This document shows positions 1,228-59,169 of a stretch of 64,000 bases of DNA, piece after piece. The stretch is from Escherichia phage PC3, in sequence record ON184125; one strand, 5' to 3'. The translations under genes were made by a program, and so were the position numbers. Positions within the stretch are counted from its first letter, which is position 1; the number at the start of each line of letters is the position of its first letter. The notes beneath the pieces are model-generated. The model had not been told where the DNA came from, did not search any database, and saw only the letters and a list, made by a program, of their open reading frames with translations.

Positions 1228-1887
1228 ATGTCCTACTCCCTGAAGGGGCTGATGAAGCGCCCCGTCCACACATTCTTTAAACCACCCGTCGTAAAGGGGA
1301 TCTACCCAGCACGAGGGCAAATCTACTACGTCAAAGGCTCCAATGGTAGCGGTAAATCCACTGTGCCGTCTCAGCTGGCGGAGAGGGATCCTCAGGCGTA
1401 TGTCGTGACCCATAACGGCAAGGTAATGCTGACTGTCTGTCCTTCGTTCAACGTGGTCTGTATCGGTAAATATGACAAGTCGAAGTCCAAGGGGGTTGAT
1501 TCCCTGAAGGACACTGAGCAGATGTTGTTCGCGTTGTCTATTGCTGACCAACCAGAATACTTGAAATATGATGTGATTTTCGAAGGTATCATTCCATCCA
1601 CATTATTGAGTTCTTGGATCCCCCGCCTGACACGCCCACCACGTGAATTGGTTGTGCTCTTTATGGACACTCCCCTTGAAACGTGTATCTCCCGCGTTAA
1701 ATCACGTAACGGCGGTGTGGACTTCAATGAAAGTCTGGTGGTCGAGAAGTGGGAGAGAGTTCATGACCATCGTCAACGACATAAAGACTTGTTCCCTACG
1801 GTAGCTGCGGGTATGATGAAGTCTCACGGCCTAACGGTAGACCAGGCTGTGATGGCATTCCTCTGTCGTGATTTTGGGAGTATCTGA
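1228..1887 (+). CDS. P-loop NTPase / nucleotide or DNA kinase (candidate 5-hydroxymethylpyrimidine DNA kinase)
   Basis: Walker A GSNGSGKST; later IGKYDKSKSKG and IFEG motifs shared with the C-terminal domain of the 44142-45740 ORF; TGATG overlap with the downstream hydroxymethylase. Confidence 0.7.
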   Translation: MSYSLKGLMKRPVHTFFKPPVVKGIYPARGQIYYVKGSNGSGKSTVPSQLAERDPQAYVVTHNGKVMLTVCPSFNVVCIGKYDKSKSKGVDSLKDTEQMLFALSIADQPEYLKYDVIFEGIIPSTLLSSWIPRLTRPPRELVVLFMDTPLETCISRVKSRNGGVDFNESLVVEKWERVHDHRQRHKDLFPTVAAGMMKSHGLTVDQAVMAFLCRDFGSI

Positions 1888-2933
1888 TGGAAATCAAAGC
1901 AATTAACAACAATGACATGCTGAAGCAGGCTGTCTTGGCTATCCGTGAATTCGGGATCGAATCTGATCCTGGTAATGCTGAAATAAATACTGATAGCACC
2001 CGCTTCCTTGATGGCGTGACCATAACCGTCGCCGACATCCGTGACCGCTGGCTATCCGTTGAAGGTCGTAACTCATCGGCTATCGCTGCCATCGGCGAGA
2101 CCTTCTGGGTTCTGTCCGGGCGCGATGACGTTCGCTTCCTGTCCCGCGTATTACCTCGCGCTGCTAACTTTTCGGATGATGGGGTAACATGGCGAGCTGC
2201 TTATGGTCCGCGTCTGTACGCCCATGGCCAGCTGGATAGCGTTATCAACCGCCTGCGCAAGAACCCAAACACTCGCCAGGCGTACCTCACCATCTATGAC
2301 CCGGCTCTAGATTCGGATGCTGGTCTGGCGAAGTTCAGCGAGAGCGGCGAAGCAAAGACTAAGGACATGGTGTGTAACCTGGCTCTGTTGTTCGCCATCG
2401 TTGAAGGTCGTCTGAACCTGACGGTCATCAACCGCTCACAGGATGTTCTGTGGGGGATGAGTTCAATCAACTTCATTGAGTTCTCTATTCTTCAGGAAGT
2501 GATTGCTCGGGTGCTGGACGTTGACGTCGGTCAGTACAAGCTATTCTCTAACAATCTTCATTACTACAACAATGAAGTCAGCCAGAAGCAGCTTGGCAAG
2601 ATTACCAAAGACACAAAAGTCACTGGTGGTTTCATCAACTCCATGATTCACTTCACGAACGTGACCAACCAGAACCATATCCGCAATCTGTTCACTGGTG
2701 TGCTTCATCACTGTGATATCGGCAGCCCGTGGGAAACTGTGGTCGCCCACCTGAAGGAATATGATGCTGATCGTGGCCTGATTGTACAGATGGCGTACTG
2801 TCTGCACTGCAAACTGAACGAAAAGCTCATTAACCTGGACCTGATTCAGGATCATGGCTTGAACACCGCGCTCACCCATTCTCCGGTTGACCGCAAGATC
2901 GTTGATCCTAAGTTCCTGGAAGGTGTAGTATGA
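1887..2933 (+). CDS. thymidylate-synthase-family pyrimidine hydroxymethylase (dUMP/dCMP hydroxymethyltransferase-like)
   Basis: TS-fold motifs by eye: RQAYLTIYDP, candidate nucleophile Cys in MVCNLALLF, RSQDVLWGMSSINFIEFSIL resembling TS RSxD...FNI; substrate cannot be assigned. Confidence 0.7.
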   Translation: MEIKAINNNDMLKQAVLAIREFGIESDPGNAEINTDSTRFLDGVTITVADIRDRWLSVEGRNSSAIAAIGETFWVLSGRDDVRFLSRVLPRAANFSDDGVTWRAAYGPRLYAHGQLDSVINRLRKNPNTRQAYLTIYDPALDSDAGLAKFSESGEAKTKDMVCNLALLFAIVEGRLNLTVINRSQDVLWGMSSINFIEFSILQEVIARVLDVDVGQYKLFSNNLHYYNNEVSQKQLGKITKDTKVTGGFINSMIHFTNVTNQNHIRNLFTGVLHHCDIGSPWETVVAHLKEYDADRGLIVQMAYCLHCKLNEKLINLDLIQDHGLNTALTHSPVDRKIVDPKFLEGVV

Positions 2934-31754: not shown

Positions 31755-32554
31755 CGAGTAGAGGTCACAGAGTGGCCGTCAGCGTCTTCAACAACACACC
31801 AGTACTCACCCTCGTTTTCGGCAGCAACTGCAGTGATAACCAGGCTCGCAGTTGCAGCAGTGGGGTTAGTGCCAGCATCGATCACCTCACCTTCACCACC
31901 AGGGACATCAGAGAAGTACCAAGTATGTGTGTATGGGGTAGTGCCGCCTGTAGCAGCGATGGTGAAGGTTGCGGATTCACCTGTTGTTACATCCTGAGAA
32001 GCGGCCAGATCGGTAGATAGAGACAGAGCGCCAGCCACTGTGATGACGGTAGAGTCGGTGTGGTCACCTTCGATGGTTACACCGTAAACAGTCACTGAAC
32101 CCGGCGCCAGCAGCTTGAATTTACCACCACCGATGTGCACAGCTTTGGTCAGATCGCCAGAGTACCAGTTGACACCCTGGTAGGTCGCGTTCTCCGGAGC
32201 GACGACCGCCTTCAGTTCAACAACCTGACCGACTTCACCATTAGCAGTTTCAGGGGTGATGGTCAGGCCAGTGGTCAGCACAGCGCTTGGGTCGTGGATT
32301 TCATAAGACAGCTGGAAGCCAACGGGCTTGGTTGGATCCACTTTGGTGACGCCATCGGCCTGCAAATTGCTCTTGGTCAGCAGTGCATCCAGACCTTTAC
32401 ACTCAGTCAGGATCTCGTCTGGGTCTTGGTTAAGACTGGTCTTTTCCCAACCCCGAGCAGTACCTGTTACAGTGTGAAGACGCTCAGTTTCCGGTTTGTT
32501 GCGAACAACTTCCGGTGCTACTAATACAGTGATCGTTGGCATGGTTTCCTCCAC
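31733..32554 (-). CDS. Ig-like domain protein (possible capsid or tail decoration)
   Basis: Ig-fold signatures ATFTIAATGGTTPYTHTWYF and GEYWCVVEDADG. Confidence 0.5.
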   Translation of the reverse strand: MEETMPTITVLVAPEVVRNKPETERLHTVTGTARGWEKTSLNQDPDEILTECKGLDALLTKSNLQADGVTKVDPTKPVGFQLSYEIHDPSAVLTTGLTITPETANGEVGQVVELKAVVAPENATYQGVNWYSGDLTKAVHIGGGKFKLLAPGSVTVYGVTIEGDHTDSTVITVAGALSLSTDLAASQDVTTGESATFTIAATGGTTPYTHTWYFSDVPGGEGEVIDAGTNPTAATASLVITAVAAENEGEYWCVVEDADGHSVTSTRCEMAAI

Positions 32555-42357: not shown

Positions 42358-43584
42358 TCAGCGTTTCAAGAGTGTCATGAGGTTGACGCTGCTGGACTTC
42401 GGTTTATCAATCTTCGGTTTACCCAATTCTCGATACACCTGGTCAGGCTCCCAGCGCGTACCCTTTTGCAGGTGCCAGATATGCAGAGGAACACCAGTCT
42501 CAAAGAACACAGGCATCTTCCACTTCTGGACGCCTGGAACGTGCCCTGCAGGAGCCTTTTCGCACAACAGGGTATCTGGCAGCCAGAGCGAACGGGCTTC
42601 CCAGAGCGCTGCGCAGGAGTATTCAGGCCAGACGCGTTCCATGTAGTCTATCTCATCCCAGGTACGCTCTGCGTCCCACCCGATGTAACGAGTATTCTTC
42701 AGTCGGAAGAATTTCTTCAGCCAACAAGCACCGGAGGTTTCAAAGTTCAGGCGGTTGATGAACGTCAGGTGCCCGAACTCAGCCACACAATCCTGGAACG
42801 CCTGCTCAAGGTCGGCCTCAAGGATGTCACACTCTTCATCCGTGATAGGGCAACTGTTGATCTTTTTCTTCCCGTGTTTAGTCACCCAATCGTCACGGTT
42901 GGACAAGAACGCCGCGCCATTACGGTTGGACTCGCTTCCATCACGATCACGCAACATGAAGCCAGGGACGTCAATGGTGTATTCGTTCCCGAAGACCATG
43001 TTCAGGGCTTCCAGGAAGTTCCAGGCGCTCAGGCGACCGAAGTATTTCCAGGACATCGCCGTGTCCCACAGCTGGGTGAATTGTTCTGTCTTATCGATGC
43101 ACACCAACATCCCACGGAAAGCGTCATATTGAGTACGGCCAGCCAGCCAGTCAATATAGGACTGAACACACGGAATCATCTTGGACTTGCGGTAGCGACA
43201 GTCGGTATCGAATCGCATGCGATCAAAGTTCAGATTATACCAATCAGAGAAGCGCTGCATCTCTTCCTTAGACTGAGGCGGCACAGGGAACTCACTGTAG
43301 ATCGTCCACGGCCCGACGGCGTTATAGCAACAACCCCACAGGAATGCCATCCAGATCTTGCGCTCGACTTTCTGTTCGAGGCTGATGCCTTCAGTGACTT
43401 CGATCGCATAGTCCATCAGACGCATCTGCTGGTTGTGCTCTTCTGTGTAGGACAGCGCCTCCACCCAAGCCTTGAGCAAGTACATGCGATTCTCAGGCTT
43501 GCGATAATCAACAGCCAGGTCAATCGGGTACTTCCATTCAGCCGGAGGCGTATAGCCCGTCGGCATTTTAGATAAATGATGCAT
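42358..43584 (-). CDS. hypothetical protein (408 aa)
   Basis: Long ORF with no motif recognisable by eye; candidate accessory enzyme. Confidence 0.55.
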   Translation of the reverse strand: MHHLSKMPTGYTPPAEWKYPIDLAVDYRKPENRMYLLKAWVEALSYTEEHNQQMRLMDYAIEVTEGISLEQKVERKIWMAFLWGCCYNAVGPWTIYSEFPVPPQSKEEMQRFSDWYNLNFDRMRFDTDCRYRKSKMIPCVQSYIDWLAGRTQYDAFRGMLVCIDKTEQFTQLWDTAMSWKYFGRLSAWNFLEALNMVFGNEYTIDVPGFMLRDRDGSESNRNGAAFLSNRDDWVTKHGKKKINSCPITDEECDILEADLEQAFQDCVAEFGHLTFINRLNFETSGACWLKKFFRLKNTRYIGWDAERTWDEIDYMERVWPEYSCAALWEARSLWLPDTLLCEKAPAGHVPGVQKWKMPVFFETGVPLHIWHLQKGTRWEPDQVYRELGKPKIDKPKSSSVNLMTLLKR

Positions 43585-43945: not shown

Positions 43946-44145
43946 TTTGGTTCCTTGAATATTTTGTAACCAGCAGCGCCGATAGACATCACCGCGCCAA
44001 TACAGTACATCACAGTCACGTTCAACTTCTCTGAGGTTGTTAAGTCCAGAGGGGTGAAATGATAGGCTAGGGCAGTACACATTGAAACGGCTGCCATAAC
44101 CAGACCAATGAACAACAGATAATTAGACAACCGTTTCATGATCAC
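43942..44145 (-). CDS. small membrane protein
   Basis: 67-aa ORF, two hydrophobic helices. Confidence 0.35.
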   Translation of the reverse strand: MIMKRLSNYLLFIGLVMAAVSMCTALAYHFTPLDLTTSEKLNVTVMYCIGAVMSIGAAGYKIFKEPK

Positions 44146-45740
44146 CCCTTCTTCATCAGGTCAAGGAGAGAGCGCGACGCTGCCTTCGTTGCTTCTGGCT
44201 GGGCGCTCGCCTTGGTTTTAGTTTTGGATGCCTTCTGCGGCTTCTCAGGCACTCTGTGCGCCAAAGGGTTGCTACCCTTAATCTTGCGCAACATTGGTGT
44301 GGTGTCGCAATATTTTTGAAACTCTTCTTTGGACAACCCTCTCAATCCAACAAAATCTATAATAAAACTACCAATAAAGTGGAGAGGGGCATCGAAGAAT
44401 TTCAGTATATTCCAACCAACTGCCTTTACACCATTTTCATTCGCTGCCTTTGCAATGAACAACTCATTCTGAGAGTCTGGTTCAAGTTCGTATCCGATGG
44501 CAGCGTACTCACTCATGATCTTGACGTGATCCTTGGTGTATTGTTCATTTCTTCCCCAGCCAGTGTCCTTCGCCGCCTTACCAGAACGACCGATGATACG
44601 TTTGTCGTAATCTTCCCGCGCTTGGTAAATAAAGGAGATGAATGCCATGTTGTTGAACCCCAAGTCCTGGTGTACGAACTCGGGACGCCATCGATGGCTC
44701 TGCATCATAGGTTCCCCCTCCAAGATGATAGTTGCATCTTTGAACTTTATTTTGAGATACTTCAACAACGAATTGGCCATCTCAGAAGACTTGAGAGTGG
44801 AGTGTATGAAATCCATAGAAGTCCATGATGCTAGACCTGATTTGTTGGACACTGTATACTTGCCGATGAACACCAGATTGATTTCCTTGAACCAAAACCC
44901 AACCTGGATCATCTTCTTGTCGAATTCGTATTCTATGAGTTCTGGCTCATATTTGGTTCTCAACCACTCAAGGAATTGAACGACACGAGTCCCCTTTCCC
45001 GTTCCACTTGTCCCGCGAATAACGACAATACCCGGCGTCACGCTAGAATTTATCATAGTCATAAAACGTTTGTCCTCTTTGGGAATCCAACCATCTTTAA
45101 ACATGGCGATCATATTACGAAAGACGCTCTCATCGCCCTTTAGATTACGATACTCTGTGTCCAGTAGTTTAGAATACCACAATCCGATAGATTTGTAACC
45201 ACATCCTCGTTTTGGTATACAGGTAGGATTCACAGTACCACCGTTATTCACCCATCTATCATAGATCCTACGGGCGTCCTTCCAAACCCACCAATAACCA
45301 TTTGAAACCATGAATGGGTAGGGAGAATTACCCCTGTTCTCCTTTATTGATTTTATTACACGCTCCCGGTATTCTGGATCATCCCAAGGATTTATACCAG
45401 ATTTGTATTTCTTGCCAGTCCTGGCCAACGCCGCCTTAAATTGGTTTGGTATGATAGAATTGTCTCCTCCCAATTTCAGGTTCAGACATAATGGGTCCAA
45501 CAGTAACTCTTCCGTAACAATAATAGACTCCAGGTCGGATGCCTCCAACCTGGTTTCAAACTTTTCTATTATCGTCTTTAAGAATTCAGAAGCGGGGTGA
45601 GATTCCAACAACCTTTTGATGATAACACCAGAACCCATATAGGGGTCTTGTTCGGGGGCGCATGAACAAGACCGAATCCCGACGTAGAATCTCCCAGTTG
45701 GGACATGGGTTATCCTATATGTGTAATGGTAGCGAGCCAT
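44142..45740 (-). CDS. GIY-YIG homing-endonuclease domain fused in frame to a P-loop kinase domain
   Basis: N-terminus YTYRITHVPTGRFYVGIRS...YMGSGVII (GIY-YIG); FKDGWIPKEDKRF module at about aa 215; C-terminal half has Walker A GTSGTGKGT, IGKYTVSNKSG and ILEG, paralogous to the 1228-1887 kinase. Confidence 0.7.
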   Translation of the reverse strand: MARYHYTYRITHVPTGRFYVGIRSCSCAPEQDPYMGSGVIIKRLLESHPASEFLKTIIEKFETRLEASDLESIIVTEELLLDPLCLNLKLGGDNSIIPNQFKAALARTGKKYKSGINPWDDPEYRERVIKSIKENRGNSPYPFMVSNGYWWVWKDARRIYDRWVNNGGTVNPTCIPKRGCGYKSIGLWYSKLLDTEYRNLKGDESVFRNMIAMFKDGWIPKEDKRFMTMINSSVTPGIVVIRGTSGTGKGTRVVQFLEWLRTKYEPELIEYEFDKKMIQVGFWFKEINLVFIGKYTVSNKSGLASWTSMDFIHSTLKSSEMANSLLKYLKIKFKDATIILEGEPMMQSHRWRPEFVHQDLGFNNMAFISFIYQAREDYDKRIIGRSGKAAKDTGWGRNEQYTKDHVKIMSEYAAIGYELEPDSQNELFIAKAANENGVKAVGWNILKFFDAPLHFIGSFIIDFVGLRGLSKEEFQKYCDTTPMLRKIKGSNPLAHRVPEKPQKASKTKTKASAQPEATKAASRSLLDLMKKG

Positions 45741-46045
45741 TACACAGCATCCTCAATACGCCAGCTCACGCCGCCCAGCCAAGGTGCCCAGAACACAGCA
45801 ACCTGTGGGCAGCCATTCTCTTCAAACTTAACTTTATACTGGTCGTCGAAGTTATAGAAGATTTCATCCGCTTCAGAGCGCTGGCCGATCTTCACCAGTA
45901 CATCATGAAGAGCCTTGGCTGCACCGATAGGAGTTGGAGTCTCCTGCTGGCGAATGAAGTTGTTCACATGGTTAATCACGCTATCCATGTCGCTATCACC
46001 GGAACGCTTGTCTGGGGTTTCCCCAAACTTGGATTGTTCTTGCAC
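45740..46045 (-). CDS. hypothetical protein
   Basis: 101-aa ORF. Confidence 0.4.
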   Translation of the reverse strand: MQEQSKFGETPDKRSGDSDMDSVINHVNNFIRQQETPTPIGAAKALHDVLVKIGQRSEADEIFYNFDDQYKVKFEENGCPQVAVFWAPWLGGVSWRIEDAV

Positions 46046-46054
46046 GATGTCCTC

Positions 46055-46834
46055 CTATCGGACGTATTGATAATGACTAATCAGGCGGTTAACCACTTCA
46101 ACAATATTGTAATTCAGGAAGTCGAAGTGATTCTGGCCTTCTACTGGTTTAATATAAAGCATGTCTTCCGAATTCGAAAGATCCAGTTTTTCATAATTGC
46201 CCTGAGGAACAAAGATGACAAAGATGTTGTTCAGGCCGCACGGCTCGACATACTTCGGATTGTCATCAATCAGGACATCGCCAGCCAGCAGATGCTTTTC
46301 GTCGGTGCTGACAAATCCGTTGAAGATACCAGGGAACTTGTCGTAGACAAACTGGCGCTTGCTGCGCTCGTGTTCCGGCTCACACTTGGACACTGCGATG
46401 AATTCAACATTGTCGAAATCTTCGAGCAAGATATCCTTCAGATTTACCAGGAACTCGTAAGCGCCGGGGAGCGGGTTCATCTTGGCGTACAAGTCAGGGC
46501 GACGCCACCAGTCCATAGGATCGTTACCGCTTGGCACACGTTGTTTGTGCATCCCCAATTGTACTTCATGGTATAGCCACGCCGGATGCGCACGTTCACG
46601 CATCAGAATAGCCAGGTCGCCAGCATGGGACATATAACACTCTTTGGTAATCGGCTGGAACTGGTATGACTTATGTTCCCCCGTAGCGATAGCAGCGGCG
46701 GCGATGTTCTCTTCGTTAAACCACTGCACCCAAGGGGAGAGGCTGTCGACCAACGTCAGGTCAACATCCACGAGGACGCGATACAGGCCACCGACCTTTG
46801 ATTTCATATCATAGATACAAACCAGGTTGTTCAT
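46055..46834 (-). CDS. HAD-superfamily phosphatase (5'/3'-deoxyribonucleotidase-like)
   Basis: HAD motif I VLVDVDLTLVD (DxDxT/V). Confidence 0.55.
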   Translation of the reverse strand: MNNLVCIYDMKSKVGGLYRVLVDVDLTLVDSLSPWVQWFNEENIAAAAIATGEHKSYQFQPITKECYMSHAGDLAILMRERAHPAWLYHEVQLGMHKQRVPSGNDPMDWWRRPDLYAKMNPLPGAYEFLVNLKDILLEDFDNVEFIAVSKCEPEHERSKRQFVYDKFPGIFNGFVSTDEKHLLAGDVLIDDNPKYVEPCGLNNIFVIFVPQGNYEKLDLSNSEDMLYIKPVEGQNHFDFLNYNIVEVVNRLISHYQYVR

Positions 46835-47234: not shown

Positions 47235-48816
47235 TCAACCTTTCTTCTTTTGCATCATGGCAAGAAGGTTCACACGGCGCTTGTGTGACCAGCCGACCAC
47301 GTCGAGGATAGACTGAATCGGATCAATGAAGGACTTCTCAAAGGCCGCCTGATAATCCACCCATTTGCCCAGACCAAGCTCCTCGGGGAAGAACTCAGGA
47401 TATGCAAAGTAGTTCTGCCCAAACGGGTTGCCCGGCTTCAATAACACCATCTGTACCTTATCACCCGACTCGATCATCGGTAGACCCAGATCTTCGTTCT
47501 TCTCAACCAGACGGTTGTAGCCCACACACGCCTTGGCAGCAAAATGAGCACCAGATATAAACGAGCCGTCAGCAGCCACACACTTCTCTATGTCGGACAC
47601 GCCTGACGCCTTGGCGATATCGTCTACAGAGAGTTTCATGTACTCCTCTTTGTACTGGGAGATGAGCGTCTGTACTTCCTCTTCGGTGCCGAGTAGGATC
47701 TTCTCATAACACTTGACAAGACGCTCACGACACCATTCCGGCGTGGTGGACTTGCGGGCTTCCAGACCTTTGAACTTGATCTTCGGCTTCTCATACTTGA
47801 TACCCTCACTGTCGTACACGGCCATGGCATACATCTTCTTGGCTCGCCAGACAGCGGCTGACGCAATGACCTCACGCTCCCATACCATACGCTGTTCAAA
47901 TCCGTTCATGGTGTTACACAGAAGCTGTGCCCACTCATTGGTCTTCGGCTGGTAGTTGTCTTTGATCCATTGGTCGATATTATCAACCATAGCATGATGG
48001 TCAGTAACATCAGGCCACAACTGCTTGACAAGACGCTCAATGCAGATGTAGTTGGAGTCGGTATCACCTGCGATGACGAAGTCCTGGCCTGTTGTACCAC
48101 ACAGCTTGTTCAGATAGTCATCAGTGTAACGCTTGTTCCACTTGTTGATCAGCTGACCGGATGTGGTGATGGCTTCGGCAATGTTGAGGTTGAAGTACTC
48201 TTTGAACCAGACGTTCGAGATCGCGCCATAACCTGCGTTCATCAAGATCTTCAGACCTTGCTGTAGGGTATCTTGAGCGACGCCCAGGTCTTCCCACTTC
48301 TTCATCACTTCGGTCAGGGCATCAAGATCAATGTTCTTGTGCTCTTCATACCACTCTGGGTCATAGTAGCGAGACTTCATGGCAGACTCAAGATGGAAGT
48401 CGCCCTTCGACATCTCTTTACACCAGCCAGCCCACTGCTCATACTTCAGACCCTTGGCCTTCTCTACTTTACGGTCGCTGTAGATACCACGCATGATTTC
48501 AGACAGGAACGACATCTTCTCGTTGCTGAAGAATTGAACGTTCGGTGTGAACGACACGTTGTAGCGGCGCAGGGTTTCAAAGTGGAACTCACCCAGGGCA
48601 ACCAACTCATCAACAACCTGCAGGCGTTCGTCAACCGCACGCAACAGCTTGTCGTGAAGGGCTTTCATCAACCGACGTTTGTGCATCGGCGTTGCCATGT
48701 TATTCATCTGAGCAGCCAGCTCTTCACACATAGCCTCAATAATCTCGCGGCGCTGGTGTTTGTCGCCAACGATAGTCTCAGGACCGAGGTTGTACTGCTG
48801 AATGATGTGTGGATAT
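47235..48816 (-). CDS. DNA polymerase (family B) exon 2: second half of motif A through C-terminus
   Basis: Starts with YPHIIQQYNLGPETI matching T4 gp43 YPSIIRQVNISPETI; contains motif C VIAGDTDSNYICIE; both exons together are 3000 nt in frame. Confidence 0.85.
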
Positions 48817-49281
48817 CGCTTGTGTTCAGGGATGCTCGCTATTTCATCCCCCGTGTTCGTCATTCAGTTTACCGAACACTGCTGTATGTCACCATACAGG
48901 CCAGACTATATCACAATCTCCAGAACTGTCTAGAGATTCTCTCCATTTCGAGGCGCTTGCCCCTACTCTACTCGCTTCAGATCAGACGCTTAGTCGTCGG
49001 TCTTGCTTTCGATAGTCGTTGAACCTTGTCGCCCACTACTTCAAGGAAATCATCTGGGTTTAACCCAGCGTAACCAAAGAGTCGTTTGAAGTTTCTTGCC
49101 AACTTGCCCCACTCATTCTGGCAAACATTTCCTTCATGACCTTACTCCTTCACCGAGGTTACAGAGTATTTAGATCTTCGTGGCCGACCTTGGCTGCTGA
49201 TTATCTCTAAAGAGACTTCCCAGCAATTAAGAGAGTTATTCGATGGTTGTCGCCAACCAAAGCCCCTATGCTGCTAACTTA
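48817..49281 (-). mobile_element. group I self-splicing intron, ORF-less (~465 nt), inside the DNA polymerase gene
   Basis: Interrupts motif A between DLNSL and YPHII; 5' exon ends in U that can pair (U-G) with intronic GGGG guide; intron ends in G; GGGTTAAACCCAGATGA, ACGACTAAGCG and GATATAGTCTGGCC resemble T4 td intron P3 and P7 elements from memory. Confidence 0.7.
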
Positions 49282-50699
49282 AGGGAGTTCAAATCTTCCG
49301 AGAAGACCCAGAAGTAGATTCCTGGTGTCACATCCATGACGTATGCACCCTCAAAGTCGGTCGGACCATCGTATACACGCTGGATCTTAGGCACTATCCC
49401 CTTCTCGTACAGGCGATAGTAGCACATGGCCAGCCACGGAGCCACAGTGCCCAGACCGTCTTCATAGTTGGACTTGGTGCGGTAGGCCAGGACGAACATC
49501 AGTTGGAGCAGGCGCAGCTTCTGTTCAAGTCGCCATACCAGCTTAACGTCTTTGATACCATATCGGGTGTGTTTGCAGTAGTCGTTGAAGTACAGATCAA
49601 AGAGCGACTTGCTCTCACTGTAGTCCATCTTCTTCTCACCCAGCTCACAATACGCAATCCAGTCAAGAGAGTAGCGTTCACGGGTGGTGTACGTGTGTTT
49701 CTTGTAGATCTGCATATAATCGAGCATAGGGCAACCCACGAACTGATACGTCGTGATATCGCCCTTCTTATCGCGAATGATACGCTTCTTAATGATACCC
49801 CAAGGACTGAGGCGCGACGTTTCAGCCTCACCCAGAACCTGATTCATGCGCTCAACAAGATAAGGGCTATCAAACGTCTCAATGTTCCAGCCTGTCCAGC
49901 CGTCGAACTGACGCTGTGACCAGAAGTCAAGGAAAGATCGCAGCAGATCCTGCTCGGTGACAAACTCCTTGTACTCCACCTCAAGTCCACCGATCTCCGC
50001 GTCTTCTGGATCGTATCTGAACTTCGCACGATCCTTCGCGCACGGCATACCCCACACCATGAACTTATTGGTCGCCATGTCCTGAAGCTGGATCAGGGTA
50101 ATGGGGAACGCCGCATTCATGTCTTGGGTGATCTTACCGTTGCTGTCAATGATAGGGAACTGATCAGTGACGTTGTTGCTGATAAAGGAACTGGGAAAGT
50201 GCTCACGGATGAAGTCATGGTTGGCCAGTACCTGCTGATGGAAGCGGCGAATGCGCGCCTCATTCCCTTTGAACGTCTGCTGCTCAATGGTTGGGTGAGG
50301 GAATGGACCTTTGGTCATCTTTCCATCTTTCCACCCGGCGGAGAACACTTCGATATCGAGGTTAGCAATATGGATGTTGGAGTAATCCGGCTCAATCTTT
50401 CCAGGAAAGCTATGGGCGATGAACTGGTATGCATAATCGGTCTGCCCGTAAATGGCTGCACCCTGGACTTCCTTGTACTCTTCAAGGTAGTTGTCAGCAG
50501 TGCGCATGTCAGGGAACTTCTTGGAGACCAGGGGTTCGTTGAGCAGGCCGACCTTTTCAACATTTGAATAATCAGCCGTGGGTAAATAGAGAGTGGGTTC
50601 GAATTTCTTTTTCAACAGACGGCGATTACCCATGTCATCTGCAATTCGAATCAACAGGTCATTGCCCCTGCGGGCAACGTTCGTATAGAAAACGGTCAT
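49282..50699 (-). CDS. DNA polymerase (family B) exon 1: N-terminal and 3'-5' exonuclease domains through first half of motif A
   Basis: N-terminus resembles T4 gp43; Exo I HIANLDIEV; ends ...GAYVMDVTPGIYFWVFSEDLNSL then stop in the unspliced frame. Confidence 0.85.
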
Positions 50700-52967: not shown

Positions 52968-52992
52968 AGAAAGGGGCTTAATGCCCCTTTTG

Positions 52993-53451
52993 TTATTCTT
53001 CCCAGAAGTCGTCATCGTCACCGACGGCGGCCAGTTCCGTGTCCAGGTCTTCATCACTGAATGGTGGCAGCACGCCATTCTGGATCAGATAATCCATCTC
53101 ATCGTCTTCCAGCTGCAGGTCAGTGGCAATATACAGCGCTCCACTGCCCTCTTCGTCCGTCTCGATGCTATACGAAGTGTATGGCACCCCATTCACCGTG
53201 ATGATGATAGACGTTGGATCCTCGGGATCTACGTGAGCCTCGAACGGTACGCCGTCAATCGGTGCATCTTCCAGGAAGGTGGCAAGGGCTACGGCGGCGC
53301 GGACAACATCAGTGCCTTCAACGCCTGCATAGATCTCTTCCGCGCCCGTCTCTTCACGATCAAACAGCTCAATCGTGATACCGTCTTGAACACCAGTCCA
53401 TACAGGGATGTCATTGGTGTATTCTGATTCAAACAATTTGGAGGTTGGCAT
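52993..53451 (-). CDS. hypothetical acidic protein
   Basis: 152-aa ORF with strongly acidic C-terminus. Confidence 0.45.
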   Translation of the reverse strand: MPTSKLFESEYTNDIPVWTGVQDGITIELFDREETGAEEIYAGVEGTDVVRAAVALATFLEDAPIDGVPFEAHVDPEDPTSIIITVNGVPYTSYSIETDEEGSGALYIATDLQLEDDEMDYLIQNGVLPPFSDEDLDTELAAVGDDDDFWEE

Positions 53452-53595
53452 GTTGGGTTCCTCAGTGGGTTAGCCATATGGGGTATTTAGGCTTCCCGCT
53501 TGGCGAGGCCTGGTTTGTACAGGACGCCTCTCGGAAATATTGGAGGAAGGTTTTCATAGATACCCCACACGGATTGTATGGGGTATTCAGGAGGG

Positions 53596-54870
53596 TCAGG
53601 AAGGGGTGAAGTCGTTTACAGGAACTGTTTCAGGGATAGCCAGCTCAGGGCATGCTGCCTTCATCGGCTCTATGTATGGCTTGCTACCCACAATCCAGAA
53701 CAGAGTGTTCTCATTGAGCACCTCTGGCTTGTTCTGCTGGATCCAGGTCATGACCTTGCCTTCATAGCGAGGATGCAATTCGATATCACCCCACTGATAT
53801 TCCATCAGGTCATTGTAACGAACCCAATTAGTGGTGTGAAGATCCCAATGGTGTACCTCAAAGCGAGGAAGCACGACCTCTGGCTCTTCCTTCTGCCTGA
53901 TACCACTTAGGAGGCCAGCCAGAGAAACGCTCTTAGAGGCATGCTGAAGCTCCTTCTTGCCGTGTACATAGTCTGGGTTGTCGTGATAGCGACGGGTGAA
54001 GTCGACAATGTGCGGCAGATTGGCATGTTTGCCGATGATACGCAGACGGCTCTCAATGAAGTCCAGGCGGTTCGGACCGATGCCAATCAGATACACACGC
54101 TTCAGATTAGGCTTCGGATGCATTGCCAGCCCGGTCAGAATGCTTGTGCAAGAGTTGCACGATCCGGCTGGGATAATCAGATCGGTAATATGGTCAGGGA
54201 TGTTGGCAACCTGCTCGCCACCCAGCATATGGAAGCCAGCGATGCGCTCAGGAGAATGCGCTGTATGGTCGAGGGTGATACCATATTCCAGATAATACGC
54301 CTTTGGATTCTGTTGTTCGATCAACTTCTTACAGCGCGGCTGGATCGTGCTGTTGTAACCCGAGCCGACGAAGTTGAACTCACTACCAAACCAGGCTGAC
54401 ATTGCCACCATGTCGTGGTTCATACAGGTGGTGGGTTTGGTCGCTCCGAGTACAGTGGTTGTCTTGCCGCCGAAGTGCCGAGAGACTGCCGTCGCCATAG
54501 GGGACTGCGGACTACCAACGACAGTACCATGGATGATGTCAGGGGAGCCTCCAGTCTTCAGGTGCTCAACCATCAACCAGATGGCCTGGCGCAACTTACT
54601 GCCATTGATGCCCTGCTTGCCATTCATATAACAAGATAGCGGCGCGAAGTAATCTTCACGCTTGAACCAGACCTGCTGGTTAGTTTCGGGGTTGGCGACG
54701 AGTTCACACGGAGTGTGTTTGTAGAGGTAGTCTTCCCAGTGAATATGTTCACGATGAAGAGAGAGGACATCAAAAATCGTTTTGTATGGACCTTTCCCTA
54801 ACGTGTGGAACGGGATATACGTGCGGAACGGGATATATGGAGCGAGGGGTTGTGCAGCGAATTTGTTCAT
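53596..54870 (-). CDS. PLP-dependent fold-type-II enzyme (ACC deaminase / D-cysteine desulfhydrase-like family)
   Basis: KREDYF...NGSKLRQ (candidate PLP-lysine motif like KRED...GGNKxRKLE), SPQSPMATAVSRHFGGK, DLIIPAGSCNSCTSILTG, LFWIVGSKP align by eye with ACC deaminase motifs. Confidence 0.65.
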   Translation of the reverse strand: MNKFAAQPLAPYIPFRTYIPFHTLGKGPYKTIFDVLSLHREHIHWEDYLYKHTPCELVANPETNQQVWFKREDYFAPLSCYMNGKQGINGSKLRQAIWLMVEHLKTGGSPDIIHGTVVGSPQSPMATAVSRHFGGKTTTVLGATKPTTCMNHDMVAMSAWFGSEFNFVGSGYNSTIQPRCKKLIEQQNPKAYYLEYGITLDHTAHSPERIAGFHMLGGEQVANIPDHITDLIIPAGSCNSCTSILTGLAMHPKPNLKRVYLIGIGPNRLDFIESRLRIIGKHANLPHIVDFTRRYHDNPDYVHGKKELQHASKSVSLAGLLSGIRQKEEPEVVLPRFEVHHWDLHTTNWVRYNDLMEYQWGDIELHPRYEGKVMTWIQQNKPEVLNENTLFWIVGSKPYIEPMKAACPELAIPETVPVNDFTPS

Positions 54871-54939
54871 TCTATTTCTCCTGTAGACATTGGCTTATCA
54901 TAGCGTATCTACAGGAGTATAGAAAAGGAGAATCTCGGC

Positions 54940-55584
54940 TTATTTCTTGAATAAACGAAGGAACTTCATCATGTTTTCCATGAAAGTCGGCTTCTTGACC
55001 TTTTGTTTTACCGGAGCGCCCTGATCATTCAGAACACGATTGGCCGGAGGAGTTGGATTCAAAGATTTAATTGCCTGATTCAAATCGGAATTATCCACGA
55101 CACCCACTTCTTCACCGACCGTAACGCATGGTTTGATTAGAACGGATTTCTTAGACTGCTCATACTGATGAGCGATATCCAGATATTTCTTGCGCTCTGC
55201 GTAGAAATCAACAGACTTGACCTTGCGACGACGCCAATTGGCGCTTTCTTCGCCATAGAAATCATATCCGTTTCTGATCAGCCAGTGCACGGCTTGTTCA
55301 AACGAACCGAAGACCATAAGTGGAGCGCCCTGGCCTTTCTCAGATTGTTCCAGGCTACCATAACCCATCAGCACAACCTGGCCTTTGATACTCAAATCAA
55401 ACGTCATACCAAGGTTCGGGATGTTTTTATCGCGGCGGAAGAACCCGCCATCACGGTAGACGTAAACAGGCGACAGGAACTCATTCAGAGTGCGCTTGAC
55501 ACCCTTGTATTGGAAGAGTCTGACAATTGGAGGGGTGTCATGGGAAATCACTTCGTTCAATTCCCAGATAGAAACATTACGCAT
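54940..55584 (-). CDS. hypothetical protein
   Basis: 214-aa ORF. Confidence 0.5.
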   Translation of the reverse strand: MRNVSIWELNEVISHDTPPIVRLFQYKGVKRTLNEFLSPVYVYRDGGFFRRDKNIPNLGMTFDLSIKGQVVLMGYGSLEQSEKGQGAPLMVFGSFEQAVHWLIRNGYDFYGEESANWRRRKVKSVDFYAERKKYLDIAHQYEQSKKSVLIKPCVTVGEEVGVVDNSDLNQAIKSLNPTPPANRVLNDQGAPVKQKVKKPTFMENMMKFLRLFKK

Positions 55585-55606
55585 TAGTGTATCCTCAAAT
55601 CTATGA

Positions 55607-55636
55607 TAGGGGGTTAACGGTTAAATTTTAAACCCC
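55607..55636 (-). terminator. hairpin GGGGGTT...AACCCCC with AT-rich loop
   Basis: 7-bp G/C stem followed by TTTG on the plus strand; lies between the tRNA region and the 55584 gene start. Confidence 0.4.
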
Positions 55637-55954
55637 CTTTGTATCATTGAACAAACTATGATAAAGGAGGACATGCTTGGGCCGATAAGAAGATAATAAG
55701 ACAGGGATAAAAAGAAAGCCGGATAGGATATCCGGCTATACCACATCGATGGGATGGGTTGAAAGACTACACGCTTGCACTGGTACTACCCTATGGGAGA
55801 GCGCGTCAGGAGTCGAACCTGAAGTCGTCGACGTAGAGAAAGCTATTTGCATTTCACTATCCTCGCCTCGATTTTCTTAACTTCCTAAACACCCCGATTA
55901 CGAGAGAGTCGACATGCACATCTTCTAACTCTTCAGGAAGTCACGCCCGTAATT

Positions 55955-56043
55955 TGGCGGAAGGTGAAGGATTCGAACCTTCGGGGGCTAAAAGCCCCAC
56001 TCGATTAGCAGTCGAGTCCCTTAAACCTCTCGGGCAACCTTCC
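55955..56043 (-). tRNA. tRNA-Ser (anticodon GCU), type II with long variable arm, CCA encoded
   Basis: Manually folded cloverleaf: acceptor GGAAGGT/ACCTTCC, anticodon stem CTCGA/TCGAG with loop CTGCTAA, variable-arm stem GGGC/GCCC, T-arm GAAGG-TTCGAAT-CCTTC. Confidence 0.8.
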
Positions 56044-56296
56044 AATTTGGACGGGCTTCACACCCGATTGAGCATTTGATCTGCCGTAGCCCAACTCCCC
56101 GCGCTTCTCAGCGCCGATTGGTTAACTGGCGACCAGTGCCTTCTGGTTCGATCTCCTGGAACTTTACAGGCTTTGCGCCCGACCATTTCTGGAAGTTGGG
56201 GCATCGTTTCCGATGCGGAGTCATCCCCATTTTATACACAGCTGGCTGCAACGCTTACTGTGTTTGTCGGAGTGTTATGTTTCACACCCCTTAACA

Positions 56297-56373
56297 TGGT
56301 GATCCTGATTGGGTTTGAACCAATGACCAATGAATTATGAGTTCACTGCTCTAACCGACTGAGCTACAGGACC
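56297..56373 (-). tRNA. tRNA with CAU anticodon (Met or lysidine-modified Ile), CCA encoded
   Basis: Acceptor GGTCCTG/CAGGATC (one G-U), D-arm GCTC-AGTCGGTTA-GAGC, anticodon loop CTCATAA, T-arm ATTGG-TTCAAAC-CCAAT. Confidence 0.75.
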
Positions 56374-58395
56374 AAATTATTGTGTACCAACCAAGGACTG
56401 TCAACCCTTTATCCCGTTTGTGTATGATCAGTTCATGCATGCCTGTTTGTGCGCCTCACGGCATGCGCTTCTGTGGGTCTTTGGCTTGCACCATAGCCTC
56501 GCCACAGGCGTTTATTTTTCCAGGGCTTTCCACTTACAAGTCTTAACCAGACCGGGATACGGGCTTGTAAGATCGGGTTGGACACAACTTTGATAGCTCT
56601 GGTACTAAAGATCCCGCGTCACCCATAGACATGGTTTATAAAATCCAGAGCCATCAAAGTTGCAACCAAATGTTACAACTCGCAGCTTCCATGTAGAAGC
56701 AACTTGTCCTCTAACGCTCGGACCAAACTAGGCTGGCTGGTTGATTCAGAGCCGCTGGTTGCTCCAGCAAGCATGGGTTGATAGCCCGGCAACATAGAAT
56801 CACCCAAAGATGAAGAACATTCATGACTCACATCACACCACGAATGGCCTGAAAGAGAATCGAACTCTTTAAATGCTCTTCATTTTGTGAACTTGAGAAT
56901 ACTACGCCTGTCTCGGGTTTCCCCTTAGTTCGGCCTCCCAGTCCTCGCCGCGCCGGGTAGCTAACCCTGATGGCTCGTCTGCTACTGAGTTCTTCTTGGT
57001 GCCCACCAGTGTCCGGAATGTGTAGGCATCGCAATCTGCAAGGCATGGTCTATTTCACCCAATGCTCTCTCAAGTTCACAAATCGAAGTGCCCTGACTCA
57101 ACAGTATGGCCCAATATGCTGTTATCGTCCACCGGATTGGCCGTCCAATTTGTAGATCAACCTTTGGGTTTAAGATAAATTGTCAAGGCACTTCGATTTG
57201 TGTGCCCTTCACCTGCCAGGGGTCAGGGCTGATGGCAAGACTTCGCTCACATCTTTCAAGATACTCGTGAGAATATCCTCAAAGATGTGGGCCGTTTTAG
57301 GGAGTCGAACCCAAATGTTCAGCCAGCGCTGACCTTACATCCCATCTGACTCAGGCAACCCGCCTCTGCTTACTCAGGAGCTTATCCCCTTTGTGCAGTC
57401 AGATGTAACGGCATTTTATTTAACAATTCATTCAACTGATAACTTCAGGGGACCACTCTCATCTCCCCACATTTCGACCGCCCGGGACGGTTTAGTGGTA
57501 CGTCACTTGGTCTGTTACATGGTAGGAGCCGATTCTCCCTCGAATTACCTCTTGTTCGTATGCCTACAAACAATTTCACAGATTGCTGACAAGTTATCAT
57601 GTGAATGAATTGTCATTGTATGCCCTGACTTATTAATCACATCTCAGGGCCGCGATGCGCCAGATTCTGTTACAGGGAACTGGAATACCCCGCTGACTTA
57701 TAGGCTATTACGCCGCCATCAGAACTTCCGAATCATTAGCATTTATTTGCTTGGTCAGTTTCTAAAAACCCGCAAAGTCACGCACAACGAAAACGAAAAC
57801 CTGTTTGAGTCCTAAACGTACCTGTCTTAGTCTCACAACGCTATGAGTGGCCAGGACTCAAACAGCTTGCCGTTCAGTGGGTTAACTATACTTTGTAACC
57901 CGTTATTGATAAACCTTTTATTTTTGTTGGTGAGGGTGTCACCATCGATTTACCGGAACTTACGCATCCGGCCTCGCCTGTTGGTGATCCTTCGAATCCG
58001 GGAAGATCAGTAGGAACTATGAATCAAGTTAATTCAACCAACAGGAACCTTGTTGCCCTTTGACGCAACATTATGAACCCTCTATGGAAGACTCATAATG
58101 TTGTGGCGTGATGGAGATTAGCGCCCCCGACCTCCCCTTATATGTTGGTGTCGACTTGCCAACGGGGTGCTCTCTATTTCTGAGCTAATCACGCTACAAC
58201 AGGGAGTTTCGTTCTCCGACGGTCAAGTGCGTCCACTGACACCATGCAAGGTGGATATTGACTTATGGAGTCGGAGTCCTCGTCCTAGGACTGTGCTCGG
58301 CCTCAACCTTTACACCGCTGGTAGCCCGACCCTTTACACCATAAAATTTACTATACTACAGCCCAGCTAATTTGAAAAGTCCTCTCCTCTTTGAG

Positions 58396-58542
58396 CTACA
58401 CTGCCCACAGCAGTGCGGACGAACCTTCACTCAAAACCGGATGCGCCGAAGTGGGCGTCTGTTTACCGGACTGATCGGGTAGACCCAGGAGAGTAAAGGT
58501 AATCCCGATCAGGAGGATGAGGAGTAACATCATGTAAAACAT
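58396..58542 (-). CDS. small hydrophobic peptide (48 aa), below the ORF-track size cut-off
   Basis: Strong SD GGAGGG 6-8 nt upstream of ATG; MFYMMLLLILLIGITFTLLGL predicted TM helix. Confidence 0.35.
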   Translation of the reverse strand: MFYMMLLLILLIGITFTLLGLPDQSGKQTPTSAHPVLSEGSSALLWAV

Positions 58543-58599
58543 AGTGTTCCCTCCCTTCCATGCAACTAACTTTACTGCAATTATTTATTGAATAAAGCG

Positions 58600-59169
58600 T
58601 TATTTTAACACTTCTAACTTCACAATACGACGCAGAAGGTAAACATATTCGCCAGCAGCTTCATGCGTCATATAATGGGTAGAAGGTGTGGAATGAGTGT
58701 TCTGGGTTTCTTTTAATCCAACGCGTTCAGCCCAACCATTAATAGAGTTCCCATAGAAACCGATAATCGCGCCAAAATAAATGCGCCCGCTTTCTGGCTC
58801 TAAAACGTAGTTGACAGTGAAGCAAATGTCAGAACGAATAGACTCCAGTTTCATACCAACACGACCTTCAGAGAATTCGTTACGAACATATAAATGACGG
58901 AAGCGATCGCGCCGTGCTTGTGATGATTCTTCCAATTCTTGTCGAAGTGAAGAAGTTATGTCAATATTAAATGAAAATGTTGGATTTCGTAAATCAGAAC
59001 GGGCCAACTCTAACGCAGATTCAATAACGCGACGGAAATTGATACTTTTACCTGTCAGGCGTTTCACTTCATCGGTGATTGTTTCAAAAGGGATTTTCGT
59101 GGCGCGTTCCCCTTCGTATTTTGCTAACAAAGGAACAATGTGTTTCATGATTGCTGTGTTAATGTGCAT
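58600..59169 (-). CDS. hypothetical protein
   Basis: 189-aa ORF. Confidence 0.5.
   Translation of the reverse strand: MHINTAIMKHIVPLLAKYEGERATKIPFETITDEVKRLTGKSINFRRVIESALELARSDLRNPTFSFNIDITSSLRQELEESSQARRDRFRHLYVRNEFSEGRVGMKLESIRSDICFTVNYVLEPESGRIYFGAIIGFYGNSINGWAERVGLKETQNTHSTPSTHYMTHEAAGEYVYLLRRIVKLEVLK

Follow-up and report, generated by a model that had tools for sequence, protein, structure and literature searches.

The gene on the minus strand at positions 53596–54870 of the window (the whole stretch of 64,000 nucleotides of DNA that was analysed) very probably encodes the PLP-dependent decarboxylase with which Ackermannviridae phages bring the hypermodification of thymidine to its end. 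Its product is the orthologue of gp226 from Salmonella phage ViI (YP_004327553, Vi01_182), which is also 424 amino acids long and in which 381 of 421 residues (90%) are the same, over the full length and with no large gaps. The function is already known from the literature, where it is the last reaction in the making of 5-NeOmdU, and is not a new hypothesis. A preliminary description of this DNA had proposed the protein as a candidate for a late step of thymidine hypermodification; this proposal is borne out by ViI gp226, which carries out the final decarboxylation of O-serinyl-thymidine (O-SerT) to 5-NeOmdU (PMC8989533).

In the papers on thymidine hypermodification, ViI gp226 is named as the enzyme that depends on PLP in the pathway to 5-NeOmdU (PMC5889632, PMC8989533; Lee et al., PNAS 2018, NAR 2021). 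5-NeOmdU is 5-(2-aminoethoxy)methyl-dU and is made by a final decarboxylation step (PMC8989533). Purified gp226 is yellow, absorbs at 410–425 nm and binds PLP, and it converts O-SerT in DNA (a nucleoside of 345 u) into a nucleoside of 301 u that is identical to native 5-NeOmdU (PMC8989533). With a substrate labelled with 13C3,15N-serine, exactly one carbon is lost in the presence of gp226, and in a five-lysate reconstitution from which gp226 is omitted an intermediate at +44 u builds up (PMC8989533). On the basis of a Phyre2 alignment with PDB entry 1j0a, Lys92 of gp226 was proposed to form the aldimine, and gp247 of the same phage is the serine:DNA transferase (PMC8989533). According to PMC5889632, about 40% of the thymidines of ViI-like phages are replaced by the modified base. 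CBA120, CBA6 and a Vibrio phage of the ViI-like kind also contain the 301 Da base; in addition, a recent preprint confirmed the presence of 5-NeOmdU, using HPLC-MS, in a further Ackermannviridae phage of E. coli whose gene set is the same, and a 2024 review describes the modification genes as conserved across Ackermannviridae.

A second enzyme of this kind is gp52 of Pseudomonas phage M6, a PLP-dependent decarboxylase that converts C-alpha-glycinyl-thymidine into 5-NedU and is described by its authors as a gp226 homologue (PMC8989533). Like gp226, it decarboxylates an amino acid that is bound to thymine in DNA, and K36 is predicted to be its aldimine lysine. Its substrate differs, however: the glycine is joined by a C–C bond and comes from a radical SAM isomerase, an enzyme that both ViI and Escherichia phage PH4 (see below) lack. 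The N-terminus of gp52 is shorter.

The open reading frame of the PLP protein starts with ATG, has 424 codons and coincides exactly with 53596–54870 on the minus strand. It is preceded by a Shine–Dalgarno sequence (Table 1), and among its first 50 codons no in-frame ATG, GTG or TTG other than codon 1 was found. An alternative start was rejected, codon 1 having a good Shine–Dalgarno sequence and the start being the same as that of ViI gp226. The score against PHROG 3650 (791 bits, E = 3e-238, residues 29–424), a family which is still labelled ‘unknown function’, together with the identity to gp226, is such that the reading frame is not due to chance. All of the motifs cited in the preliminary description are in place: K70-R71-E72-D73 (FKRED, 69–73) and N89-G90-S91-K92-L93-R94-Q95 (89–95), followed by the Gly/Ser-rich segments GGSPDIIHGTVVGSPQSP (107–124), IPAGSCNSCTS (233–243) and GIGPN (263–267). 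The only gap in the alignment with gp226 arises from an 18-nucleotide tandem duplication, which gives the protein of the window six extra N-terminal residues (YIPFRT/YIPFHT). The duplicated stretch has a pLDDT below 50 in the predicted structure, residues 1–28 are predicted to be disordered, and the N-terminus is variable in the family, many homologues aligning from residue 30 only.

Table 1. Features of the hypermodification genes and of the surroundings of the PLP-protein gene (positions in the window).
Feature	Position	Strand	Evidence
5-hmdU DNA kinase 1 (HMUDK), orthologue of ViI gp67	1228..1887	+	88% identity; PF18748, 363 bits
Thymidylate-synthase-like gene, homologue of ViI thyA (Vi01_060c)	1887..2933	+	76.5% identity; Pfam Thymidylat_synt, 57 bits
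Amino-acid:DNA transferase (clade 2 aGPT-Pplase), orthologue of ViI gp247	42358..43584	-	88% identity; ADDT PF18724, 203 bits
5-hmdU DNA kinase 2 (HMUD2, residues 236–531)	44142..45740	-	PF18747, 521 bits; 47.5% to ViI gp243
Downstream co-oriented gene, 152 aa, acidic, homologue of ViI Vi01_184	52993..53451	-	tblastn 65%; PHROG 3852, unknown function
PLP-protein gene, predicted O-serinyl-thymidine (DNA) decarboxylase, orthologue of ViI gp226, 424 aa	53596..54870	-	Open reading frame, identity, profiles, fold
Codon of K92, predicted Schiff-base (internal aldimine) lysine of NGSKLRQ	54595..54597	-	Calculated position
18-nt tandem duplication TATATCCCGTTCCGCACG / TATATCCCGTTCCACACG in the PLP-protein gene	54802..54837	-	Sequence
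Shine–Dalgarno sequence AGGAG	54878..54882	-	6 nt before the ATG of the PLP-protein gene; read from sequence
Upstream co-oriented gene, 214 aa, homologue of ViI orf00224	54940..55584	-	tblastn 63% to Vi01_181; PHROG 4050, unknown function

Comparison with the ViI gene points to strong purifying selection on the PLP gene: the differences fall at the three codon positions as 37/13/160, and the changed codons comprise 142 synonymous and 35 non-synonymous ones. A database search returned 711 relatives of the protein, 40 of which, down to about 41% identity, were used for a family alignment. In this alignment Lys92 and 33 other positions are invariant, including K70, R71, D73, N89, G90 and R94; within the second Gly/Ser-rich segment G236 is invariant and P234, S237, N239, S240 and S243 are nearly so. 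The Tyr369–Glu370 pair is likewise invariant in the family. Besides its length, ViI gp226 resembles the protein of the window in the position of K92, in its genomic neighbours and in its set of partners (two kinases, two transferase paralogues and a thymidylate-synthase-like gene). The two differ in the duplication mentioned above, which lies in the disordered N-terminus, in one extra small gene (Vi01_183) that lies in ViI between the gp226 gene and the next, and in that decarboxylase activity has been assayed for ViI gp226, whereas the PH4 protein is known from its sequence.

The preliminary description had also assigned the protein to the fold-type-II PLP enzymes, and here several searches agree. 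The Pfam family PALP (PF00291) matches residues 51–276 (profile positions 6–202 of 295) with E = 3e-7 and 30.4 bits, which is below the gathering score of 35, and some orthologues carry a precomputed PF00291 match. A single-sequence phmmer search of the PDB with the PLP protein gave nothing at E <= 1, and no NCBIfam family matched it at E <= 0.01, including the models for ACC deaminase, D-cysteine desulfhydrase and threonine dehydratase. A search of the PDB with a profile built from the 40 sequences, on the other hand, reaches ACC deaminase (1f2d) at E = 4e-6 and also D-cysteine desulfhydrase (4d8t) and 1j0a. In these matches GINGSKLRQ aligns on the G-G-N-K-L-R-K lysine motif, and K92 falls on the PLP lysine K51: it is aligned with the GNKLRK lysine of yeast ACC deaminase and with K51 of E. 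coli DcyD. An AlphaFold2 model computed from the family alignment has a pLDDT of 88.5 and a pTM of 0.87 and is weak only at residues 1–26 and 304–316. When searched against the PDB with Foldseek, it gave 304 matches at E <= 0.001, and the best 50 listed all have a probability of 1.0, with TM-scores relative to the target of up to 0.68. The order is D-cysteine desulfhydrase, the ACC deaminase homologue 1j0a and ACC deaminase, followed by TrpB, SbnA, serine dehydratase, cysteine synthase and threonine deaminase; we take those recognised among the 50 listed (DCyD, ACCD, TrpB, SbnA, serine dehydratase, cysteine synthase and threonine deaminase) to be fold-type-II enzymes. The threonine deaminase TdcB comes at rank 48 among the fold matches listed, after DCyD and ACCD. 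Profile, structure-prediction and fold searches thus support a predicted fold type II for the PLP protein, with ACC deaminase and D-cysteine desulfhydrase as its nearest families. A solved structure of gp226, of M6 gp52 or of a close relative was not found in the PDB by the sequence and fold searches.

ACC deaminase (1f2d and 1tzk), 1j0a and D-cysteine desulfhydrase (4d8t; E. coli DcyD) share with the PLP protein fold type II (tryptophan synthase beta-like), the G-x-K-L-R lysine motif, a Gly/Ser-rich phosphate loop and a P-x-Y-E/T-G-K motif. The identity to these fold relatives is only 13–16%. An hhalign comparison of the family with E. coli DcyD covers 277 columns with a probability of 86% and pairs K92 with K51, Y369 with Y287, E370 with T288 and V394 with T315; the phosphate-binding loop IIPAGSCNSCTS (232–243), which is Gly/Ser-rich, is aligned with VVASGSAGTHAG of DcyD. 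The signature of ACC deaminase comprises Lys51, Tyr294–Glu295 and Leu322, and that of DCyD Thr288 and Thr315, so that Glu295 and Leu322 tell ACC deaminase from D-cysteine desulfhydrase (Thr/Thr). At these sites the PLP protein has E370 and the hydrophobic V394, which are of the ACC deaminase type, a likeness of residues that does not establish an activity. Its N-terminus is longer by about 45 residues, and some 55 residues (286–343) form an insertion that has no equivalent in DcyD. The reactions differ as well: ACC deaminase and D-cysteine desulfhydrase catalyse ring-opening deamination and beta-elimination, whereas ViI gp226 catalyses a decarboxylation on polymeric DNA.

The partners of the pathway were located by searching the window with the ViI pathway proteins (tblastn) and by Pfam scans. 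The kinases and a candidate for the hydroxymethylase, which the preliminary description had mentioned as the context of the gene, do accompany it: two 5-hmdU DNA kinases, the thymidylate-synthase-like gene and the transferase all lie in the window (Table 1). From the pathway literature, the thymidylate-synthase-like gene would encode the dUMP hydroxymethylase that supplies 5-hmdU. The genome was also examined for the kinases, the clade 2 aGPT-Pplase and the hydroxymethylase candidate together with the PLP protein, and all of these partners are present. By analogy with ViI gp247, the transferase would make O-SerT, the substrate of the decarboxylase. A homologue of ViI gp160, the second transferase paralogue, is present in PH4 outside the window (81%). 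NCBIfam has no matching family for any of five proteins: the PLP protein, HMUD2, the amino-acid:DNA transferase (AADT) and the products of the two neighbouring genes. The pathway departs in one point from that of ViI, as HMUD2 is only 47.5% identical to gp243 and has an extra N-terminal domain. This N-terminal part, of 235 residues, matches PHROG 314 (‘homing endonuclease’) with E = 2e-24. A plus-strand open reading frame at 45662–46576 (304 amino acids, the length of ViI gp243) was considered as the second kinase and rejected as a coincidence, since tblastn puts the gp243 homologue at 44145–45029 on the minus strand. Finally, a GIY-YIG-like motif was spotted by eye in the N-terminal part of the HMUD2 protein.

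The PLP gene is the middle one of three minus-strand genes and shows local synteny with ViI, the orf224 homologue being upstream and the Vi01_184 homologue downstream. The upstream neighbour is probably the first gene of a transcription unit to which the PLP gene also belongs. A promoter-like site (55632–55603) and a terminator-like hairpin (55737–55717) lie upstream of this neighbour, and a bidirectional terminator-like hairpin (52969–52991) follows the downstream neighbour, so that the three genes are bounded on both sides, by elements that as consensus matches are weak evidence. In the CDS-free region 55585–58650, a search for structured RNAs gave two tRNAs and otherwise sub-threshold matches only.

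By megablast, the PLP gene is 100% identical to that of Escherichia phage PH4 (ON184126.1; Ackermannviridae, Aglimvirinae), which confirms the phage origin, and from the match coordinates the window should correspond to positions 91896–155895 (+) of PH4. Ackermannviridae phages are known as virulent. A DNA match of at least 80% identity was found in 265 phage records, whose hosts are mostly Salmonella, Klebsiella, Escherichia, Dickeya and Shigella. At the protein level, tblastn gives matches to 347 phage records. Nearly all belong to Ackermannviridae, from enterobacteria, Vibrio, Erwinia, Serratia and Aeromonas, with one weak partial match in a mycobacteriophage; the homologues in Vibrio phages are about 50% identical. 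Such an enzyme is therefore not ‘unusual in phages’, as had been supposed, but typical of Ackermannviridae. A metagenomic relative with 40% identity is fused to an HMUD2 kinase and adjoins HMUDK_hel, thymidylate-synthase-like and dUTPase genes; HMUD2-type fusions of this sort have been reported (PMC8989533). In PH4 the gene bears only the label ‘hypothetical protein’, and most of the 347 records give either this label or the mistaken ‘threonine ammonia lyase’, which also occurs in UniRef; ‘threonine dehydratase’ and ‘carboxylate deaminase’ are found for some orthologues as well.

We may wonder at this stage whether the PLP protein could instead be a deaminase or lyase of small molecules, comparable to ACC deaminase, D-cysteine desulfhydrase or threonine ammonia-lyase, which would act on a free amino acid in the infected cell and not on DNA. 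Its nearest structures and profile matches are indeed ACC deaminase and D-cysteine desulfhydrase, it retains the Tyr–Glu pair of ACC deaminase as Y369–E370, and several GenBank labels of orthologues say so. However, the assayed ViI enzyme, which is 90% identical, decarboxylates O-SerT in DNA, no NCBIfam model for such enzymes matches and the identity to them is low, and the family co-occurs with 5-hmdU kinase genes, even to the point of being fused to one. As for the labels, they are automatic transfers and not tests, and ‘threonine ammonia lyase’ and ‘ACC deaminase’ were rejected as functions on the grounds of the orthologue assay and of the lack of a match to a curated model. We consider this alternative extremely improbable. 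The ACC deaminase/D-cysteine desulfhydrase assignment of the preliminary description thus holds for the nearest relatives in fold and fails for the chemistry, as the orthologue decarboxylates and does not deaminate.

One could also imagine a hypermodification decarboxylase that handles a different amino-acid adduct in PH4 and other Aglimvirinae, so that the final base would not be 5-NeOmdU. Hypermodification pathways are combinatorial (PMC8989533), HMUD2 is strongly diverged and fused to an extra domain, and direct chemistry for Aglimvirinae was not found in the literature. The amino acid is not chosen by the kinase step, however: the transferase, which determines the specificity, shares 88% identity with the serine:DNA transferase of ViI, the PLP protein shares 90% with gp226, and the Vibrio phage, with a far more diverged gene set, still makes the 301 Da base. 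A different adduct is in our opinion very unlikely, and we retain decarboxylation of O-SerT as the reaction of the PLP protein.

The pathway in PH4 would then proceed as follows. The phage DNA would be replicated with 5-hydroxymethyl-dU, supplied by the product of the thymidylate-synthase-like gene as putative dUMP hydroxymethylase, and the 5-hmdU DNA kinases, acting on the polymeric DNA, would add a phosphate to the hydroxymethyl group. The gp247 orthologue would swap the phosphate for the side-chain oxygen of free serine, giving O-SerT with its alpha-amine free. This alpha-amine would react with PLP, held as an internal aldimine on K92, to form an external aldimine, from which the alpha-carboxylate of O-SerT would leave as CO2 to give 5-NeOmdU. 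Each step has been demonstrated in phage ViI, and we infer the same order for PH4.

Decarboxylation is atypical for fold type II, a scaffold that normally carries out beta-elimination or replacement. A carboxylate at the pyridine nitrogen would help to stabilise the carbanionic intermediate of the decarboxylation, and the Tyr369–Glu370 pair, with the Glu facing the pyridine nitrogen, may together with the 286–343 insertion adapt the scaffold to decarboxylation on polymeric DNA. A more detailed version, which we find possible and yet rather doubtful, is that the Tyr369–Glu370 pair could permit decarboxylation and suppress beta-elimination of the O-linked nucleobase, while the insertion and the N-terminal extension could form an element that grips the DNA or flips the base. 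The family would then be a fold-type-II answer to an enzymological puzzle, the decarboxylation of a DNA-linked serine ether without its elimination.

For annotation, we suggest the name PLP-dependent O-serinyl-thymidine decarboxylase, which would be of value for the members of PHROG 3650. The gene content predicts that PH4 DNA would carry 5-NeOmdU, a base that blocks many restriction endonucleases. Judging from its genes, PH4 DNA is thus probably hypermodified and probably resists many restriction enzymes, which, if so, would be relevant to sequencing, cloning, engineering and therapy with the phage.

The open reading frame of the second 5-hmdU DNA kinase (HMUD2) runs without interruption through the kinase and a 235-residue N-terminal part. 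Judged by its sequence, this N-terminal part resembles a homing endonuclease: it matches PHROG 314 (‘homing endonuclease’) with an E-value of 2e-24, and by-eye inspection reveals a GIY-YIG-like pattern (YTYRITHVPTGRFYVGIRS...YMGSG). In the annotated record of phage PH4 the entire ORF is named ‘homing endonuclease F-LimXI’, with its start placed at M35, and the kinase has been overlooked. The kinase part is 47.5% identical to ViI gp243, compared with 76-90% for the remaining pathway proteins.

Features in the window and their positions
Feature	Position	Strand	Remarks
HMUD2 ORF	44142-45740	-	HMUD2 part, residues 236-531
Group I intron	48882-49269	-	Rfam RF00028, 58.6 bits
PHROG 3852 gene	52993-53451	-	152 aa, acidic; flanks decarboxylase gene, same strand
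18-nt tandem duplication	54802-54837	-	one mismatch; within PLP gene, 5′ end
PHROG 4050 gene	54940-55584	-	214 aa; flanks decarboxylase gene, same strand
tRNA-Ser(GCT)	55955-56043	-	within CDS-free stretch
tRNA-Met(CAT)	56297-56373	-	within CDS-free stretch

One DNA polymerase ORF spans 49266-50699 and another 47235-48863, with a group I intron between them. The polymerase gene of ViI is single and unbroken. The RF00028 match exceeds the gathering score, covers the full length of the model and slightly overlaps the 3′ edge of the upstream polymerase ORF (49266-50699); no endonuclease ORF was seen within the intron.

Compared with ViI gp226, the tandem duplication in the PLP gene inserts YIPFRT/YIPFHT into the N-terminus of the protein, which is predicted to be disordered. 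Both flanking genes are also kept in ViI; neither has a match in Pfam or NCBIfam, and their homologues are not in the set of five ViI genes that is sufficient for reconstitution (PMC8989533). In ViI, gp226 is immediately followed by Vi01_183 (149 aa; 31853-32302 of the ViI locus), an extra gene relative to the interval 53452-53595 here; a tblastn search with Vi01_183 found no match in the whole window. Separately, a copy of the PLP gene with 91% identity is found in a 111 kb record named ‘Enterococcus phage Efm 3-10’ (OR844942.1). Such a closely related Ackermannviridae gene under an Enterococcus name points to contamination or wrong labelling of the record, not to a hypermodification pathway in a Gram-positive phage.

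The approximately 3 kb between 55585 and 58600 carry no annotated CDS in PH4, and a similar CDS-free gap lies in the syntenic position in ViI. Among the ORFs listed for this stretch as far as 57600, the longest encodes 72 aa. Besides the two tRNAs, about 2 kb are left over; a lone tRNA-like match (58105-58194, minus strand) scores 24 bits, below threshold.

As for the HMUD2 ORF, it may represent an endonuclease gene that has lost its stop codon, the kinase being made from an internal start at about codon 227-234. Alternatively, its product may be a true fusion protein.
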